Source: a phage
Length of the DNA: 64,000 bases
Direction: 5' to 3' (one strand)
Sequence record: NC_135728.1
The notes under the pieces were generated by a model. It searched no databases and was not told the DNA's origin. It was given only the letters and a program-made list of their open reading frames with translations. Below are positions 40,347 to 53,860 of the stretch, piece after piece. The stretch's first letter is position 1. Every line of letters starts with the position of its first letter. The translations under genes were made by a program, and so were the position numbers.

Positions 40347-40865
40347 ACCTGAAGAGTCTGAATAAGTGTTTAAGTACCAGTCAGAGGAAAAGGTGAATGG
40401 TAGCCGAAGGGGGAGGGGGGTTACCTGCTTCTGTAAACATGCATCTGAAATACTACTTTAGATAACCTGAACCTGCCTTTCTGACAAATATTCCCTATTA
40501 AACTTGAATTATTTATAGAAAATACCACAACACCACTTAAGTCTTTGATTTTACACACAAATCTTACAGATATTAAACCTCTCTATTTAACATACCTGTA
40601 ACATATACTATACTCCACCTGTCTGATCAATTTCCCCAACTACATCCCCATATTTTCCCTGTCTGTACTACCCCTGCCCCGCCGGGAGTCCCGTCATATC
40701 TGGCTTTCCAGCAAATATCACACCCACAAATATCATCACCTGAAGAGGGTTTCATCCCATAATACATGCCTTACCTGAAGAGCGCTTCATATACCCCGTA
40801 AATTTTTTAATTGACCCCCTCCCCGCCGCCGGAGGGGTTGGCTTTTCCCACACAAACCTGAAGAG
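40347..40865. repeat. dispersed direct repeats of ACCTGAAGAG (4 copies)
   Basis: Copies at about 40347, 40738, 40773, 40856; ACCTGAAC variant at about 40463. Confidence 0.5.
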
Positions 40866-41425
40866 TCAGCCAGAAATATCTGAACAGCCAGTTATACCAC
40901 GATTTTGTGCTTGTCCTACAGGAGTGCTTCCCTGTCAGGAGCCGGTAGCGACTGGAGTGCTGCCAGGCGGACGAAATGGGAATACTTCTCATTCTTATAA
41001 CAATTCTCAAATATCGAGGCAGTGAGGCAAATTAATAGGTGAGGCCGTTCACACAGTGGCACAACATTTGCAACCTATCTTGTGGGATTGAATGAGAATA
41101 CCTATCATTGTGAGAACTGTTATCATTACGGGCAATTTAACATAATACCCATTATGCGCACCACTGGCGATACATACAGGGATTTATAACATGAGTTACT
41201 GTTTACGTATATAACAATTATATTTCTTACTATTTGTGTGGGATATAGTTAGCAGCCGATAGATTAGATATTGACCTGCAGACTTCCAACCGTCTAGACG
41301 TCTAAACGCCCACACAACAAGGTTTATACATACATTACTGAATGTAAACAGGGCCGCAAAAATGCTACCATACAAGATTGTAAATTTTTCATGCAGCACT
41401 TGACAAAGAGGAGAAAAACTTGTCT

Positions 41426-41505
41426 GACACTTTAGACACAATAGTGACATAATATGACACCTTTGACACACTGGACACATTAAACATAATTGACATGCCT
41501 GACTG
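41426..41505. repeat. iteron-like array of GACA(C/T) repeats phased every 9-11 bp
   Basis: Eight copies: GACAC, GACACA, GACAT, GACAC, GACACA, GACACA, GACAT, GACT. Confidence 0.6.
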
Positions 41506-41540
41506 TTTACATAGCTAACTATTTACTAAAAAATGATAAG

Positions 41541-41852
41541 CCATGCCATTCGTTTGCATGATAAAGATTAGCAAGTTAATAATCTTTCGCTGGCTATGCC
41601 AGGTGACCTTTGGTCACCCCTTCGGGTGTTTCTATGACATAATATAAAAGCAGGGCAACTATTAGCAGATCATAGTTGCCTTGCTTGTTAACACCCTTGA
41701 GACGAAGGCTTTGCCTGAGTTTATGTCATGATTAACTAAATACAAGGCAACTATGATCTGATTAATAGTTTGCAGACAAACTATCACGGGGGTGATGGTT
41801 ACTGCTTTTATATTATGTCGCGACTCCGTCGCGCCATGCCATTCGTTTGCAT
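41541..41852. repeat. nested repeat complex: 19-bp direct repeat, 18-bp inverted repeat and internal palindromes
   Basis: CCATGCCATTCGTTTGCAT at 41541 and 41834; GACATAATATAAAAGCAG (41636) inverted at 41802; GGTGACC-TTT-GGTCACC; GGCAACTAT-N9-ATAGTTGCC. Confidence 0.6.
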
Positions 41853-42477
41853 AGTTGCCTTATTGTTACGAATAAAACAATTGCATTGTTAATGATTTCT
41901 TATCTTTCTCTTAGTCATCTAATGATTCCAGTCAGTCTAGTAATGTACAGTAAACATTAGACGACTAAAGATTTCCCTGTTTATGATAACTCACCGTGAT
42001 AATTTCAGGCTGTTTACTAAAAATGTTGACACCTAAGCTGATTTATGTTATGCAGTTTACACGAATAATTATTTTATGCAGGTATTGACTATTCCGTTAT
42101 TCTATGGTTGGAATAAATACTTAGCAGACTATAGAATGGTGAGCGTACGTAAATTCTGAGATCTGGCGGCTATAGTTATACTCGATTTTTCACGTAGAAC
42201 ACGCTTTTGTGAGTGTGTAAGTGTATGACTTATAAAGATTTTTAGTTGTTGACAAGATATTGAAGATGTGCATCAGGTTAAATTTTGTGCAATAGCGGCA
42301 TTACGTGCAATTCTGAGAGAGAAAACGGGTAAAAATGGCCCTGCTACCACAAGATGAAAGATTATGCAATAGTTATTTTTATATGTATATTTGTACAGTA
42401 GGGTTAATTGCTGGCTTGTTGATTATTCCACTTGCCAGGTGGGGCCGTTTGTGGTAGGAGAAATACAGACAAAAAGA

Positions 42478-42508
42478 AAGGGGCCTTTTAAAGCCCCTGA
42501 TAGTTTAG
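42478..42508 (-). terminator. rho-independent terminator of the leftward block
   Basis: On minus strand GGGGC-loop-GCCCC followed by TTTCTTTTT, just past gene 42517-42936. Confidence 0.6.
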
Positions 42509-42516
42509 TTAAGAAA

Positions 42517-42936
42517 TTATAATGATTCGTATATTTCAAAAATCCGATTTGCCAGGTCGTTACGGTAGCGGAATTTTTCCTCACGTTTGATCATCAGATC
42601 TTTAAAGCCATATTCTTTAAGCACTTCATTAACTTTATGGCGGCATACCTTCATATTATCTTGTGCGTCACCAATAAACTTGTTGCTATGGTGCATGGCT
42701 TTAATTTCTTCTTCCAGGACCAGGGCAACTATGCGGACCGGATCAAGCTGATAGGCGGTAACATCAATGCGGCATTGTAAACGGCTTTTTACGTCTGCCA
42801 CCGGATATACTGCAACCTCTTCCCCGTCAACATTGACAATAATTAGTTTACCATCGATTTCGAATCCTTTCGCCGCCGGACCGTGACAAAAAGCGTTATC
42901 AAAGCTATATGCCGGATTATTAGATTTAATGTTCAT
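42517..42936 (-). CDS. hypothetical protein
   Basis: Track ORF; AGAGGT RBS. Confidence 0.5.
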   Translation of the reverse strand: MNIKSNNPAYSFDNAFCHGPAAKGFEIDGKLIIVNVDGEEVAVYPVADVKSRLQCRIDVTAYQLDPVRIVALVLEEEIKAMHHSNKFIGDAQDNMKVCRHKVNEVLKEYGFKDLMIKREEKFRYRNDLANRIFEIYESL

Positions 42937-43081
42937 GGTGTTTTTACCTCTTAGTTAATTTTCTTACAACTTCCCTTCAAAAAAGAATATAGCAAAACTG
43001 CCGATCCTTGTCAACCAAGGATAGCATAATTTTTATGTGATCAAGGGGCTTTATTGCCCCCTGATCGTGCAACTTGTTGTA

Positions 43082-45794: not shown

Positions 45795-46028
45795 TCAACT
45801 ATTTTCAAAAAATTTTTCTGCTGTGATATTCTTCCCGGTAGGGTTCGCTACTTTCAAAATTCTATCATGCACCGGACGCCCGAAAGAATAAGATCCGTAT
45901 ACAGTAAACCAATAATCACCGTCAGGCTGTACTATTACCGCCGCATATGGTACGCCTTTTTCGTTTTTGCTGACAAAATAGATCACATTGCCATTAATAG
46001 CCTCAGCGCGTTTAATTTGTTCCATCAT
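45795..46028 (-). CDS. hypothetical protein
   Basis: AGAGAGGTAAAT leader. Confidence 0.5.
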   Translation of the reverse strand: MMEQIKRAEAINGNVIYFVSKNEKGVPYAAVIVQPDGDYWFTVYGSYSFGRPVHDRILKVANPTGKNITAEKFFENS

Positions 46029-46082
46029 GATGATTTACCTCTCTTTATTTTCATAATTGGGGCCTTTTCGGCCCCGCCAGGT

Positions 46083-46367
46083 TTATTTATTGATAGCGTG
46101 CAGCGGGAAAGCTACGCCAGGTTGATAAATAACCTTTACAACCTCATCAGGACAAAAGAAGTTGCAGAACTCACCGCAGTAGGCCTCATCCTCTTTCAAC
46201 TCTTCATTAACATACTCAAAAAAGTAGTCGATGCTTGGATAATCCTGGCCGGGATTATAGTCAACCATCGTTAATAATAACTCTTGATCATTCCGTAGGA
46301 TATGCATACCCGCTTTTAAGTATTTTGCTTCCATTTCTACTACATCGCCAGCGGTAACAATAGCCAT
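46083..46367 (-). CDS. hypothetical acidic protein
   Basis: TAGGAG RBS. Confidence 0.5.
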   Translation of the reverse strand: MAIVTAGDVVEMEAKYLKAGMHILRNDQELLLTMVDYNPGQDYPSIDYFFEYVNEELKEDEAYCGEFCNFFCPDEVVKVIYQPGVAFPLHAINK

Positions 46368-46500
46368 GATTTTAACTCCTATCTATCTGGTCAATGATTG
46401 GGGGCCTCCCCCCTCGACAACTCTTATTATCCATATTGTCGGGAATGATGCAAGTACTTCTTTAAAAATTTTTTAAGCGCCTTAGGGCCGTTGTAACGTC

Positions 46501-46531
46501 AAAACAATAAAGGCTATGCGATTGCATAGCC
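46501..46531 (-). terminator. rho-independent terminator
   Basis: On minus strand GGCTATGC-AATC-GCATAGCC followed by TTTATTGTTTT. Confidence 0.5.
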
Positions 46532-46569
46532 TGCTAGTGTTTAGGTCGCTGTAGGCCCTGCCTGGGGCC

Positions 46570-46920
46570 TTATTTTGCATTCTTGCCTGTATTGCCGCCA
46601 CGGTACCAGCGTTTGCGGTGAAAATGGTAATAATCCCCCTCGGCATTAAACATCAGATGATTTTCAATAACCAGCTTACGAAGGTGGGCCGGATCTTGTT
46701 CCATTCTTGCCAGATTCCGGCGGCTGTTACGTAAACGGATAAATTCCATATTCAGGCCGTTGATTGCAGCATGGATGTTAAAGTAACCACCTTTGAGACG
46801 TTCACGCATGGCGTTAAGCTCAACACAATATACAGATTTCTCACAAATCAAGGTATTAGCTAGGGCGCGGACCTGGGCAAGGGGGTTAAGCTCATTAAGG
46901 TAATATAATTTAACTTTCAT
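46570..46920 (-). CDS. hypothetical protein
   Basis: AGGTGA RBS. Confidence 0.5.
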   Translation of the reverse strand: MKVKLYYLNELNPLAQVRALANTLICEKSVYCVELNAMRERLKGGYFNIHAAINGLNMEFIRLRNSRRNLARMEQDPAHLRKLVIENHLMFNAEGDYYHFHRKRWYRGGNTGKNAK

Positions 46921-46937
46921 AAAATCACCTGTTGAAA

Positions 46938-47246
46938 TTAGTTTGAGAAAACATCGTTCACAATAGCGATCACAATGCCGCTCACCTTGTCACGGTCAAC
47001 AATGCACAAATCACCATAGATCATGTGGTAGTCTGGATGATCTTTCACAGAATAGTCAATAAGTGTTTTCTTGTCATCCAGCTTCGTAACTTCCATTCTC
47101 ATAACGATATGAGAATCATCAAAGGCATTATTCCGAAAAGTCATAGCCTGACCGCCAGGGCACCCAGTGATCTCCACTTCCACACCATCTACGATCTGAC
47201 CATCAAAGAAATAAAGATTATTAGCCTGGATAAACATGTCTATCAC
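46938..47246 (-). CDS. hypothetical protein
   Basis: AAGGAG RBS. Confidence 0.5.
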   Translation of the reverse strand: MIDMFIQANNLYFFDGQIVDGVEVEITGCPGGQAMTFRNNAFDDSHIVMRMEVTKLDDKKTLIDYSVKDHPDYHMIYGDLCIVDRDKVSGIVIAIVNDVFSN

Positions 47247-47281
47247 TCCTTGTTAACTGCGTGGTATTTTAACAGGGTTTA

Positions 47282-47311
47282 AATTTACTTTATTGATGGC
47301 CCTGGAGTCAA
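47282..47311 (-). promoter_or_regulatory. conserved promoter-hairpin element, copy 1 (TTGACT-18-TAAATT)
   Basis: One of three near-identical 48-bp elements; hairpin GATGGCC/GGCCATC spans the -35 and spacer. Confidence 0.5.
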
Positions 47312-47330
47312 GGCCATCTAAAAATAAATT

Positions 47331-47531
47331 TTACAGGCCTACAATCTCTTTGATTCGTTTAACCGCTGCCTCAGCGCCTTGGGGGTAAAAATTATGGTAA
47401 CCAATCACGCGAGTGATACTAATCGCCGTTTGATGATCTTCATAGTCGCCCTTGAAGATTTCTTGACCGTCAATCAGCACGGCAATTTTTTCTTCTTTTT
47501 TGAAGTTAATAACGCGGATATTGTTGCTCAT
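47331..47531 (-). CDS. hypothetical protein
   Basis: AAGGAGA RBS. Confidence 0.5.
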   Translation of the reverse strand: MSNNIRVINFKKEEKIAVLIDGQEIFKGDYEDHQTAISITRVIGYHNFYPQGAEAAVKRIKEIVGL

Positions 47532-47632
47532 TTTGTTTCTCCTTTCTGGTTTTTGTGGTGGTGGGGATTAGCTCCCCCCGTTGATTGTTATTATCCACAT
47601 TCCGGACCGGATTGCAACACCCCGGAAGAAAA

Positions 47633-47647
47633 TTTTTTTTTTTTTTT
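47633..47647. repeat. T15 homopolymer tract (A15 on the coding strand)
   Basis: Fifteen consecutive T; flanked by DnaA-box-like TTATCCACA at about 47589 and hairpin GGCCCCC-ATGATC-GGGGGCC. Confidence 0.8.
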
Positions 47648-47678
47648 AAAGATAGGCCCCCATGATCGGGGGCCGTTA

Positions 47679-47798
47679 TCAGTTACTTACAGCGATAAAA
47701 TACATCCCTACGCCTAACAATATTTCAAGGGCGATGATCTCAAGCCATACCATAGCACGGCGCGCCTTATCGGTGCGGGGCTTATCCTTGGTTGTCAT
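47679..47798 (-). CDS. small membrane protein, 39 aa
   Basis: GGAGGGAAGGGGGAG RBS; MTTKDKPRTDKARRAMVWLEIIALEILLGVGMYFIAVSN. Confidence 0.35.
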   Translation of the reverse strand: MTTKDKPRTDKARRAMVWLEIIALEILLGVGMYFIAVSN

Positions 47799-47818
47799 CG
47801 TCTCCCCCTTCCCTCCTG

Positions 47819-48040
47819 TTAGCAGTTACGTGGTTTGCAATGGCCCCCAGGAGTATTATCACCACGCACATTGCAAGAAAAATTATCTCTGTCGTTGTTC
47901 GATCCATTGTTATAAAATTCCTCAAGATCAGGCCTGAAAATAAAGCGTTCGTTATTGAATCCGTCACGCCAGGCGGCTGGCTTCAAATCTTCACTAAAGG
48001 GATTAATTAACGTGGCATTATTTAAACGGTTGGCCCACAT
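47819..48040 (-). CDS. hypothetical protein (alternative to track ORF 47782-47967)
   Basis: ATG after AGAGGAA (MWANRL...); overlaps a competing frame. Confidence 0.35.
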   Translation of the reverse strand: MWANRLNNATLINPFSEDLKPAAWRDGFNNERFIFRPDLEEFYNNGSNNDRDNFSCNVRGDNTPGGHCKPRNC

Positions 48041-48389
48041 ATTTTCTATTCCTCTCAAATAGGCGATCCGCCTCAGTTAAACATATCTCATGGGCTTGAT
48101 CTCTGGTTTTAGCCTCATCAAAAACCTGTTGTGCCAGGCTGCAGCGTAGGGAGACTGGAAGATCGCTATAATAGGCGTTGACAAACGTTTGAGCGTCGTA
48201 CAGGTCTGAAAATACTTTACCCTTTCTATTATTCCCCTTGTCAACAATTGCAAGGATAACCAATACAATAGTTGCGACTACCCCCAGGAAAATAGATATA
48301 ATAAACCATAAAAAGGCGGATCTTCCCATCTTGCCAGCGATCCAGGCGTTAAACAAGGCAACCAATACAGCCAAAATAATAAATTCCAT
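48018..48389 (-). CDS. membrane protein (two TM helices)
   Basis: Start MEFIILAVLVALF after AGAGGT; second TM FLWFIISIFLGVVATIVLVILAIV. Confidence 0.5.
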   Translation of the reverse strand: MEFIILAVLVALFNAWIAGKMGRSAFLWFIISIFLGVVATIVLVILAIVDKGNNRKGKVFSDLYDAQTFVNAYYSDLPVSLRCSLAQQVFDEAKTRDQAHEICLTEADRLFERNRKYVGQPFK

Positions 48390-48453
48390 TCTATGTACCT
48401 CTTTTACAGTTCTGATTAACAATAAGGCGGCAAATATGCCGCCTGTTACCTGA

Positions 48454-48834
48454 TTAAAAATTATCGCCGTAAATCTTTCCGCTTTCTACCCATACCACCA
48501 CGCGAGGCATACTATCCCACACGTCTTGTTTTAGATTGAGCGCGTGCAATTCTTCGGTGGTGCTCATACCGGGCACGGGCTGATTGTATACTGCAAAACG
48601 ACCGCCTGCATAATCATAGGCCAGGGTTAAATCACACTGGATCATCTTTTTGATCATGGCATTAAGCATGGCGTTAGCCGCATATTGATCACGTTTTAAA
48701 GGCAACTCTTTGATTAGTTTGCGATAGTTTTCGATATGGTCGCACACTGTTTCACGTGGAAGATCTTTCATATCCTCGCGAAAGGTAACCAGGTTAAACA
48801 TAACGGTGTCAATGGCTTTAGTGGTGCTTTTCAT
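48454..48834 (-). CDS. hypothetical protein
   Basis: Leader CCACACAAAACAAAGAGGAAAAC. Confidence 0.5.
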   Translation of the reverse strand: MKSTTKAIDTVMFNLVTFREDMKDLPRETVCDHIENYRKLIKELPLKRDQYAANAMLNAMIKKMIQCDLTLAYDYAGGRFAVYNQPVPGMSTTEELHALNLKQDVWDSMPRVVVWVESGKIYGDNF

Positions 48835-48922
48835 GATGTTTTCCTCTTTGTTTTGTGTGGGGCAAACGTCTTGCCCCTTGAGTTTTAATATAGCAGGTTT
48901 TTAGGTTATTGCAACACTTTAT

Positions 48923-49546
48923 TTATGAAAAAGTCATCTCGCCATATTCATCCACATCAAACCGCCAATCATTGGCCTCGATAAGGCCGATCAGGTTTTC
49001 GGTAGTAAATTGTTCAAGATAAGCTTGCTCCAGGTCTACGTAAACCTTGCGGGATAGCTCCCGTACCGTCTCGGTGATCAGCTCTTCCAGCTCTTCAACT
49101 TTGTCCTCTTGCTTGGTGGTCAGGTCTAGCCAATTAGTATCGATGCACCCTCCTATTGTGTTTTCGTGGTGATAATGGCTAAACGGGATACGTTCAACAC
49201 TGGCTGATAGTTCGCCATCGTGCATTGTGCCGAACAAGTGACGAATTGATCGGAACTTGGTCAGGGCCTTTACTTTACGCAAGAATTTTTCTAAATCCAC
49301 GTTTTCCGCACTGATTGACGCGCCGTCACCCTGGCACCAAAAGCCTGACCAATGTACTTCGGTATCTTCAAGGCCATACTCTGGAAAAACATATTCTTTA
49401 TAGTATTCAATTACACTTTCTGCAAAAAAGTTATCCCCGCTGTGTTCTTCTCTTTCGCGTACCATTTCAATGGCTTTTTCTTTTTGTTCGTCGGTCAGCA
49501 CGTCGAAAGATAAATTGTAACCTGTGGTAATGTTAACGGTGGTCAT
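48923..49546 (-). CDS. hypothetical acidic protein (207 aa)
   Basis: CAGGAGAAAATAT leader; no confident motif. Confidence 0.5.
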   Translation of the reverse strand: MTTVNITTGYNLSFDVLTDEQKEKAIEMVREREEHSGDNFFAESVIEYYKEYVFPEYGLEDTEVHWSGFWCQGDGASISAENVDLEKFLRKVKALTKFRSIRHLFGTMHDGELSASVERIPFSHYHHENTIGGCIDTNWLDLTTKQEDKVEELEELITETVRELSRKVYVDLEQAYLEQFTTENLIGLIEANDWRFDVDEYGEMTFS

Positions 49547-49621
49547 GATATTTTCTCCTGTTTTCTTTGTTAGTGGCGGGAAGTTTTCCCGCCTATGTTT
49601 TTTAATTATACTTATTGAGAT

Positions 49622-49882
49622 TTACTTGTCAACACTATTTTTTAAATTATTGTGGCGCAAAATGTTTAAAATCTTCTCAACGTCATCAACACGGCGGCAA
49701 TTTTTAAACGCTACCAATTGCCCCATGATTTTAATCACTGGGCGGCCTTGCCAGTGCCCCTGAAGAAAGCGCGCCTTGACTTTATCGGTGGAACTATCAC
49801 GCCACCAAATAGCCTTGTTGTTGCAGTAGTAAAAATTATTCAGGATAACATCAACTTTATCAAAATTTTTTAATTTACGCAT
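49622..49882 (-). CDS. hypothetical protein
   Basis: AAAGGAGTAAACGCC leader. Confidence 0.5.
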   Translation of the reverse strand: MRKLKNFDKVDVILNNFYYCNNKAIWWRDSSTDKVKARFLQGHWQGRPVIKIMGQLVAFKNCRRVDDVEKILNILRHNNLKNSVDK

Positions 49883-49914
49883 GGCGTTTACTCCTTTCTC
49901 TCTTTGATGTGGTT

Positions 49915-49942
49915 AGTATAGCTAACCTGTTGACGATGTCAA
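49915..49942 (-). promoter_or_regulatory. sigma70-like promoter TTGACA-16-TATACT
   Basis: Read on minus strand upstream of gene 49622-49882. Confidence 0.5.
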
Positions 49943-50063
49943 TGATATTTTTAACGCCACAAAACGGCCCTGGGCGATGTTTTCAGGTTAAAGGGGGCGA
50001 TTGCATAGGTGGGGGGCCTTTTTGGCACTTATAGGGCCAACCAGGGGCGCTATTCGTAGGGTA

Positions 50064-50093
50064 GAAATAAAAAGCCCCGCACGATGGCGGGGC
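50064..50093 (-). terminator. rho-independent terminator
   Basis: On minus strand GCCCCGC-CATCGT-GCGGGGC followed by TTTTTATTTC. Confidence 0.65.
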
Positions 50094-51624: not shown

Positions 51625-51654
51625 AGTTTACTTTATTGATGGCCCTGGTGTCAA
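51625..51654 (-). promoter_or_regulatory. conserved promoter-hairpin element, copy 3 (TTGACA-18-TAAACT)
   Basis: Near-identical to copies 1 and 2. Confidence 0.5.
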
Positions 51655-52899: not shown

Positions 52900-53860
52900 T
52901 GTAAAATTATTTTTTGGGTAGAATTCTCCAGCCGCCACCCCTGCCAGGTTTGCAAGCTTTCACTCTCCCACCTGGTCAGTTAGGTCCTGCTAGGGCTGGC
53001 CCCGCCAGGTTGCAGCAGTTGACGCACTATGTTAGAAAAATTTTTTGAAAAGTGTTGACAACGGCCCCACCAGGTGGCACAATATACATATCGAAAGGAC
53101 GGCAGGCACCGGTGACGGGGGAGACAACCACCGGGGATGGGCGCTGCATAAAATGAGAACGGTTATCATTATCATTTAAAAATTTATGCAAAAAGTCCTT
53201 GCTTTCTTTGTCCTGTGTGATACTATAATAACAAGCCGGGGCAGCAGGGGCCGGGAGACAATCACCGGGCCTGCCCGTTATTCTGCAAACGAGAATGATT
53301 ATCATTCAAAATTCTAAATGAGAACTCCTCGCATTTAATAAATTTAATTAGCATGCTAATTACCATCCGTAACAATTTCCTATAAAACAGTATCCACTAA
53401 AATATTCCCATATAGAAATTTTAAAAATCCATTTCTGAAAACGAAAAATCGATTTCGTCCCCAAAAATTTCAGGTCGAGAGCCGGAACGATTTCCAGAAA
53501 ATCCGATTCAGAAAACGAAAAACAGATCGAGTACTGAGAAATTTATCGAGAAAAATTTTCAGAAAATTCAATCTTTGAAATGAAAAACAGATCGAGTACC
53601 TGGAAAGCTGCACCGCAACTTCAAGATAGTGGTTAGATTGTTACCATAGAAGGTCAAGGGTAAGTGGAGGGAGTTATAGTAGAAGGATGTGAGTATGTGC
53701 AGGAAATCTGTAATGGTGGTCTGGAATATGGTGCAAACGATAGGATGGGTGATTCAGCTTGTCGCGCCCACTCTGAAAAAATCCATTTTAGTTTTCGATC
53801 CATTTTCTGATTTTCTAAGGATTTTAAAATATCCAGCCCGGTGAAATATCAAAAGGAGGA
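52900..53860. repeat. about 1 kb ORF-poor region with several direct-repeat families
   Basis: CC..CCAGGT-type motifs; two related 80-nt units containing GGGAGACAA(C/T)CACCGGG and GAGAA(C/T)G(G/A)TTATCATT; three GAAAACGAAAAACAGATCGAGTAC-type repeats about 70 bp apart; AAATCCATTTTAG repeats. Confidence 0.55.

Follow-up and report, generated by a model that had tools for sequence, protein, structure and literature searches.

What is a run of 15 T residues doing in the gap between two small phage genes, and does its length matter to either of them? The run occupies positions 47633–47647 (plus strand) of the window, the whole stretch of 64,000 nucleotides that was analysed, just where the initial annotation had placed it, and is the only A or T run of more than seven residues in those 64 kb (about 0.0004 expected from base composition). 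The window is from a Vequintavirus (an rV5-like myophage of E. coli), and matches to the region come from 121 phage records, nearly all of which are Vequintavirus. Every gene around the tract is carried by the minus strand (these are small genes of early type), so the locus must be read on the minus strand, where the tract is an A15 homopolymer followed by a run of four T residues (T4, 47629–47632). The two together are referred to here as the AnTm block, the A-run being its hypervariable, promoter-distal half and the T-run its promoter-proximal half. The reading that we prefer, and consider reasonably probable as a whole, is that of an ordinary terminator–promoter junction in the Vequintavirus early-gene array, made up of a terminator, the AnTm block and a promoter, with near-neutral slippage in the block and a nonamer that resembles a DnaA box by chance.

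Genome setting and length polymorphism of the tract

The 1.4 kb around the tract is 99.9% identical to phage Murica, but over long aligned blocks the identity is only about 92–97%, so the window represents a different, mosaic member of Vequintavirus and not Murica itself. Over the roughly 4 kb from 45928 to 50010, just three differences separate the window from Murica (one of them being the A15 of the window against A14), whereas neighbouring stretches (e.g. 50–51 kb and 53–61 kb) show 10–130 differences per kb, a mosaicism in the aligned genomes that suggests recent recombination between Vequintavirus lineages. The indels relative to Murica in the block around 45928–50016 fall mostly in homopolymer runs, and at 50011–50016 the window has G6 and Murica G5, about 60 nt from a terminator-like hairpin (50074–50093). 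Five neighbouring proteins were searched against PHROG, and matched only families without an assigned function.

Two further features of the setting may be mentioned. A few entries labelled 'Campylobacter phage' are found among the matches to the region: these 17 records (GenBank MG065xxx, e.g. L015 = MG065690), isolated on C. jejuni, are Vequintavirus genomes 87–97% identical to the window region, two of those that were fetched are marked UNVERIFIED, and the host label looks doubtful. At about 40400–43000, the genes switch from the plus strand, on the left, to the minus strand, on the right; GC content goes down to about 0.37, GC skew is briefly positive and divergence from Murica is strong, the counterpart there being about 2.5 kb with one small annotated CDS and isolated terminators. 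This interval may be the 'non-coding' box of the rV5 genome map.

The initial annotation had regarded the tract as slippage-prone and expected its length to vary between genomes, an invariant length being what would tell against it. A comparison was made across 28 genomes (the window, 23 GenBank phage records, three IMG/VR contigs and one metagenome contig). In IMG/VR, neither the hairpin sequence nor the 66-aa protein discussed below retrieved more than two or three relatives, so the survey rests on GenBank records; the metagenome scan gave a single contig, with the tract A7T5. Far from being invariant, the A-run proved to range from A2 to A15, the individual lengths being 2, 3 (five genomes), 5 (four), 6 (five), 7, 8 (two), 9, 10 (two), 12 (two), 14 (four) and 15, the longest of which is that of the window; the adjoining T-run spans T2 to T8 in the same genomes. 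Among 14 genomes with near-identical flanks there are eight A-run lengths, from 6 to 15, whereas the clades with short runs (A3, A5–6) are stable in length; replication slippage is expected to depend on tract length in this way. The length recorded for a homopolymer in a deposited assembly may be wrong by one base, but differences of 5–12 bases are not artefact. We conclude that the tract is a hypermutable homopolymer of an ordinary kind in an intergenic region. The slippage hotspot would be the A-half of the block, which in one lineage would have grown from about A5–6 to the A15 of the window.

The hairpin and the gene that it follows

Seven nucleotides past the T run on the plus strand comes GGCCCCC/ATGATC/GGGGGCC, at 47655–47674. 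The initial annotation had located this 'perfect GC hairpin' correctly, but had missed that the upstream gene has in it a predicted intrinsic terminator, published as t181 of rV5. The gene in question (47679–47798, minus strand) encodes a 39-aa single-pass membrane protein, the translation of which, MTTKDKPRTDKARRAMVWLEIIALEILLGVGMYFIAVSN, is a full-length match to phrog_13629 (E = 1.6e-31). It is homologous to Murica gp166 and to rV5 ORF181, a membrane protein with one transmembrane domain according to the rV5 supplement (Kropinski et al., 2013, Virol J 10:76), and is annotated in both of those records. Its TGA stop is separated by only 4 nt from the start of the stem-loop, which on the transcribed strand reads GGCCCCC GAUCAU GGGGGCC (47655–47674, minus strand) and is followed by the U-rich tail UAUCUUU (47648–47654, minus strand), or UAUCUUUU or UAACUUUU(U) in relatives.

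The element was found by a terminator scan, in which the tail (five U in seven) passes the rule for a U-rich tract. The stem has seven G-C pairs (eight pairs if a G-U is counted), and folds as RNA with an energy of -18.7 kcal/mol, which is non-random (z = -3.55, with none of 200 shuffles as stable). Across the 28 genomes 99.5% of the cells in the stem are paired, and the loop varies (GATCAT, GATCCC or GATTAT). No compensatory double changes were found among the 28 genomes, either in this stem or in that of the 5'-UTR hairpin described below, so the structural support for both is that of conservation. In Table S4 of the rV5 paper the hairpin is listed as a predicted rho-independent terminator, t181 (GGCCCCCGATCATGGGGGCC TATCTTTT, -16.7 kcal/mol; Kropinski et al., 2013, Virol J 10:76), and a terminator is annotated at the equivalent place in the records of Murica, HdK5 and EdH4. 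This is the same element as in the window: the hairpin GGCCCCCGATCATGGGGGCC is identical and stands with its TATCTTT(T) tail in the same place after the ORF181 homologue, but the rV5 tail is one T longer and is followed by A10 in place of A15. We therefore regard the GC hairpin and UAUCUUU as the predicted intrinsic terminator of the 39-aa gene, the transcript of which would end here. Termination may be partial, since the tail is imperfect.

The stem is itself subject to homopolymer indels in relatives, to judge from changes to its arms: the 5' arm has C6 in place of C5, leaving an unpaired base, in nomine, slur16, JeffSchatz, nomo, HdK5 and SKEL01000041, and the stem is shortened in V18, Phage203, I29, FFH2, Aya and JEP1. 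Two other interpretations of the hairpin were tried and rejected. It does not have the form of a bidirectional terminator, as on the plus strand the stem is followed by GUUAUCAG, with no U-tract, and the T15 run precedes it; and a search of Rfam at permissive thresholds gave only sub-threshold matches (isrD, across the terminator, which scored 21 bits where the gathering score is 37), which were treated as chance.

A predicted promoter and the AnTm block upstream of it

On the other side of the block, the initial annotation had proposed a minus-strand promoter consisting of TTGCAA and, 17 nt on, TAATAA. The first of these is borne out as a -35 hexamer (47612–47617, minus strand), but TAATAA is 18 nt from it, not 17, and a better -10 hexamer is provided by GATAAT (47590–47595, minus strand), 16 nt after TTGCAA. 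Together the two hexamers match the consensus at 9/12 positions, and the -10 has its A2 and T6. The agreement is moderate, and matches of this quality are common (27 in 8 kb, compared with 17.7 in shuffles). Neither hexamer varies in any of the 28 genomes, whereas only 8 of the 17 columns in the spacer between them are invariant, and the spacing is 16 nt in 27 of the 28 (17 nt in HdK5). Directly 3' of GATAAT comes AACAATCAAC, and hardly any variation occurs in the first 10 nt beyond this hexamer. The 11-nt GC-rich linker CTTCCGGGGTG (47618–47628, minus strand), between the AnTm block and TTGCAA, ends in TG, a dinucleotide that by our own count stands immediately before the -35 hexamer of 8 of the 26 promoters of rV5 Table S4. 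An extended -10 was looked for and rejected, there being no TG at -15/-14 relative to GATAAT.

The position of the -10 hexamer predicts a transcription start around 47582–47584, and a short stem-loop, GGGG(GG)A GCUAA UCCCC (47563–47579, minus strand), starts some 3–4 nt later. Its arms are conserved and its loop is variable, with 99.3% of the cells in the stem paired across the 28 genomes. Hairpins at the 5' terminus protect E. coli mRNAs from decay, and the 5'-UTR hairpin may likewise stabilise the transcript that it opens. Hexamers, spacing and hairpin make up, in the aligned genomes, the footprint expected of a promoter of the sigma-70 type, and we would predict a moderate host-type promoter, TTGCAA-N16-GATAAT, starting 11 nt past the A15T4 block. 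A second, minor homopolymer polymorphism of the intergenic region concerns the G-run in the 5' arm of the hairpin (47574–47579; C6 on the plus strand, G6 on the coding one): the window shares G6 with Murica, 25 other relatives have G4, and phiWec193 has GGTGG.

Beyond the hairpin is a Shine–Dalgarno sequence, AAGGAG (47539–47544, minus strand), which carries a ribosome-binding site annotation in Murica and lies in a stretch with 15 of 18 columns invariant. It leads into a gene for a 66-aa protein of unknown function (47331–47531, minus strand; a homologue of rV5 ORF179 and Murica gp165), which is a full-length match to phrog_12347 (E = 1.6e-49) and is annotated in all annotated relatives. Transcription from the promoter would reach this gene first, and the transcript would encode the 66-aa protein and the products of the genes that follow it. 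Some records also annotate a CDS of 41–50 aa over the spacer between the two genes (about 47506–47640, minus strand), namely rV5 ORF180, Gotham F10B_0186 and APECc02_053. The open frames there change in frame and length between genomes because of homopolymer indels, so these spacer CDSs are probably spurious.

TTGCAA-N16-GATAAT appears neither in the promoter list of rV5 Table S4 nor in the PhagePromoter annotation of Gotham. The former was derived with MEME at a threshold of 10/12 (Kropinski et al., 2013, Virol J 10:76), and a match of 9/12 accounts for the absence of the site from both. Neither a Vequintavirus transcriptome nor a paper on this tract was found in the searchable literature.

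How might the AnTm block relate to this promoter? The initial annotation had suggested that the A-tract could act as an UP-like element. As quoted elsewhere, the UP-element consensus of Estrem et al. (1998, 1999) reads -59 NNAAAWWTWTTTTNNAAAANNN -38, with the T-tract of its distal part ending at -47, so that 11 nt separate this final T from a -35 hexamer occupying -35 to -30. The 3' end of the T-run is exactly 11 nt upstream of TTGCAA in 27 of the 28 genomes (12 nt in one), and the 11-mer of the window at -57 to -47, AAAAAAATTTT, matches the distal-subsite consensus AAAWWTWTTTT at 10/11 positions, a score of at least 10 being reached at 0.05% of background positions. That part of the suggestion which concerns the register of the A/T block with the distal subsite thus stands, but a proximal subsite (an A-tract at -44 to -41) was looked for and is absent, CTTCCGGGGTG scoring 0 there; and the distal subsite by itself is reported as the weaker half.

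An internal control was provided by scoring the distal pattern at offsets of 0–30 nt upstream of the 67 strong promoter-like sites (at least 10/12) in the window. Matches of at least 8/11 pile up only at gaps of 8–11 nt, with 11 of the 67 sites at a gap of 10 (p = 1e-8) and 8 of the 67 at a gap of 11, against 0–3 at gaps of 0–6 and 12–30 and four at a gap of 7. This gap-specific enrichment over the background gaps controls for general AT-richness, and it follows that AnTm blocks in this register are a general feature of the host-type promoters of the phage. An example is provided by P174, a published rV5 promoter, which is preceded by A5T6 in the same register; this block shows a 4-nt homopolymer indel between the window (T6) and Murica (T10). 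An UP-like reading of the block at 47629–47647 is accordingly plausible from the sequence; its location in the position of a distal UP subsite (-57 to -47) makes it probable that it offers an upstream contact to the alpha-CTD of RNA polymerase. We draw attention also to two duplicated modules: AGAAAAATTTTTTGAAAA-nn(n)-TTGACA occurs nearly unchanged on opposite strands at 45798–45829 (minus strand; this is rV5 P174) and 53031–53060 (plus strand), and AGTTTATTTTTAGATGGCC-TTGACA has two minus-strand copies, at 51654 and 51033.

Might there, then, be no promoter here at all? The flanking genes could be co-transcribed with partial termination between them, the hexamers being kept by some other constraint (e.g. 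RNA processing or a protein-binding site) and the A/T tract being unconstrained spacer beyond the terminator. A 9/12 site is weak by consensus and was missed by two published or deposited promoter predictions, the imperfect UAUCUUU makes read-through likely, and in a read-through RNA A15-U4 would be a single-stranded AU-rich segment. Yet the pattern of conservation is promoter-shaped, with two invariant hexamers at a fixed spacing of 16 nt and a variable spacer between them; TG precedes the -35 hexamer as in other rV5 promoters; the UP-like block is in the register seen at the strong promoters of the phage; and a hairpin follows a few nucleotides past the predicted start. We consider the co-transcription model, as a whole, unlikely.

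Tract length, the DnaA-like nonamer and comparison with known systems

If the promoter is real, does the length of the tract influence it? Slippage in the tract might alter promoter output, such that variants of the phage would express the 66-aa gene block at different levels, as in a rheostat or contingency locus. A homopolymer with marked length polymorphism among near-identical genomes (A2 to A15 across the 28) does stand upstream of a conserved promoter, changes between T2 and T8 do alter the sequence within -57 to -47, and there is precedent for A/T tracts near the -35 hexamer working as rheostats through alpha-CTD and UP-like contacts: in H. pylori sabA, the length of a T-tract changes the phasing of UP-like A-boxes with respect to the core promoter (Aberg et al., 2014, PLoS Pathog 10:e1004234). 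However, the sabA tract separates the core promoter from its A-boxes, and in the phage the repeat was found neither between the core promoter and an upstream contact nor within the spacer. Past the tract there is only the terminator hairpin and a stop codon, hence nothing to be brought into or out of phase. The block keeps its promoter-proximal edge 11 nt from the -35 hexamer, the A-tract is 15 nt from that hexamer and not adjacent to it, and the stability of the short-tract clades (A3, A5–6) is what length-dependent neutral slippage predicts. The geometry speaks against a tuning of the promoter by tract length, and we hold such a rheostat to be quite improbable.

The bolder form of the idea is that a strictly lytic phage has a contingency-type homopolymer, slippage in the A-tract and T-run of which yields subpopulations differing in expression of the early-gene block; this we judge to be very improbable. 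If true, it would give a phage its own equivalent of the sabA rheostat, perhaps adjusted to different hosts, and would bring an unusual contingency-locus logic to a virulent phage. In the terminator–promoter junction that we prefer, expansion of the tract would add A residues beyond about -57 and move the terminator away, leaving the promoter-proximal edge where it is; from this geometry, differences in tract length are probably near-neutral. Changes in the T-run alter the sequence at -57 to -47 and may have a modest effect on promoter strength.

The initial annotation had further remarked on a consensus DnaA box about 40 bp from the tract. The nonamer TTATCCACA (47591–47599, plus strand) is indeed there, and matches the consensus at all nine positions, but as a DnaA box it is coincidental. 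It overlaps the -10 hexamer and spacer of the opposite strand, being the reverse complement of TGTGGATAA, that is, of the last bases of the spacer and most of the -10 hexamer, and we regard it as a chance by-product of the -10 region. The window contains two exact matches to the nonamer where 0.84 are expected, a count of two or more being reached by 19 of 100 shuffles (the relaxed pattern TTWTNCACA has ten matches in the window). The nonamer is exact in 17 of the 28 genomes; the other 11 carry TATGGATAA (= TTATCCATA), a sequence outside even the relaxed consensus, while neither promoter hexamer varies. There is no cluster of boxes around this single one, and no inflection of GC skew near 47.6 kb, cumulative skew falling monotonically through the site; on these grounds an origin was rejected. 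That the box might be real, whether marking an origin together with the nearby AT-rich tract or allowing host DnaA to repress the promoter that it overlaps, is scarcely credible in spite of the perfect match, and is already largely refuted by its chance frequency, its solitary and unconserved occurrence, the absence of a skew inflection and the unlikeness of a homopolymer to an array of 13-mer DUE repeats.

The terminator had been published already; the promoter and its UP-like block are newly annotated here, and both are of a familiar type. What is gained is a conserved, previously unannotated candidate early promoter with an UP-like AnTm block in rV5-like phages, several of which are candidates for therapy or biocontrol. 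The length of the tract will differ between isolates and between sequencing platforms, and such differences should not be taken for meaningful variation without checking.

Finally, we consider how the locus compares with systems that are better known. With an oriC-type origin it shares one exact TTATCCACA nonamer next to AT-rich DNA, but it has no cluster of boxes, no DUE repeats and no skew switch, and the box is not conserved. It is like H. pylori sabA in having an intergenic A/T homopolymer, about 9–18 nt long and upstream of a -35 hexamer, that varies between isolates through slipped-strand mispairing; but the sabA tract adjoins the -35 hexamer, whereas the phage tract is 15 nt away, with its proximal edge fixed and a terminator beyond it. 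The resemblance to the distal subsite of an E. coli UP element extends to the order of the two runs (A-run, then T-run), the gap of 11 nt between the last T and the -35 hexamer, and a match of 10/11. The phage differs in having the GC-rich CTTCCGGGGTG in place of the AAAA of the proximal subsite, and in an A-run that reaches 8 nt beyond the E. coli UP-element consensus.
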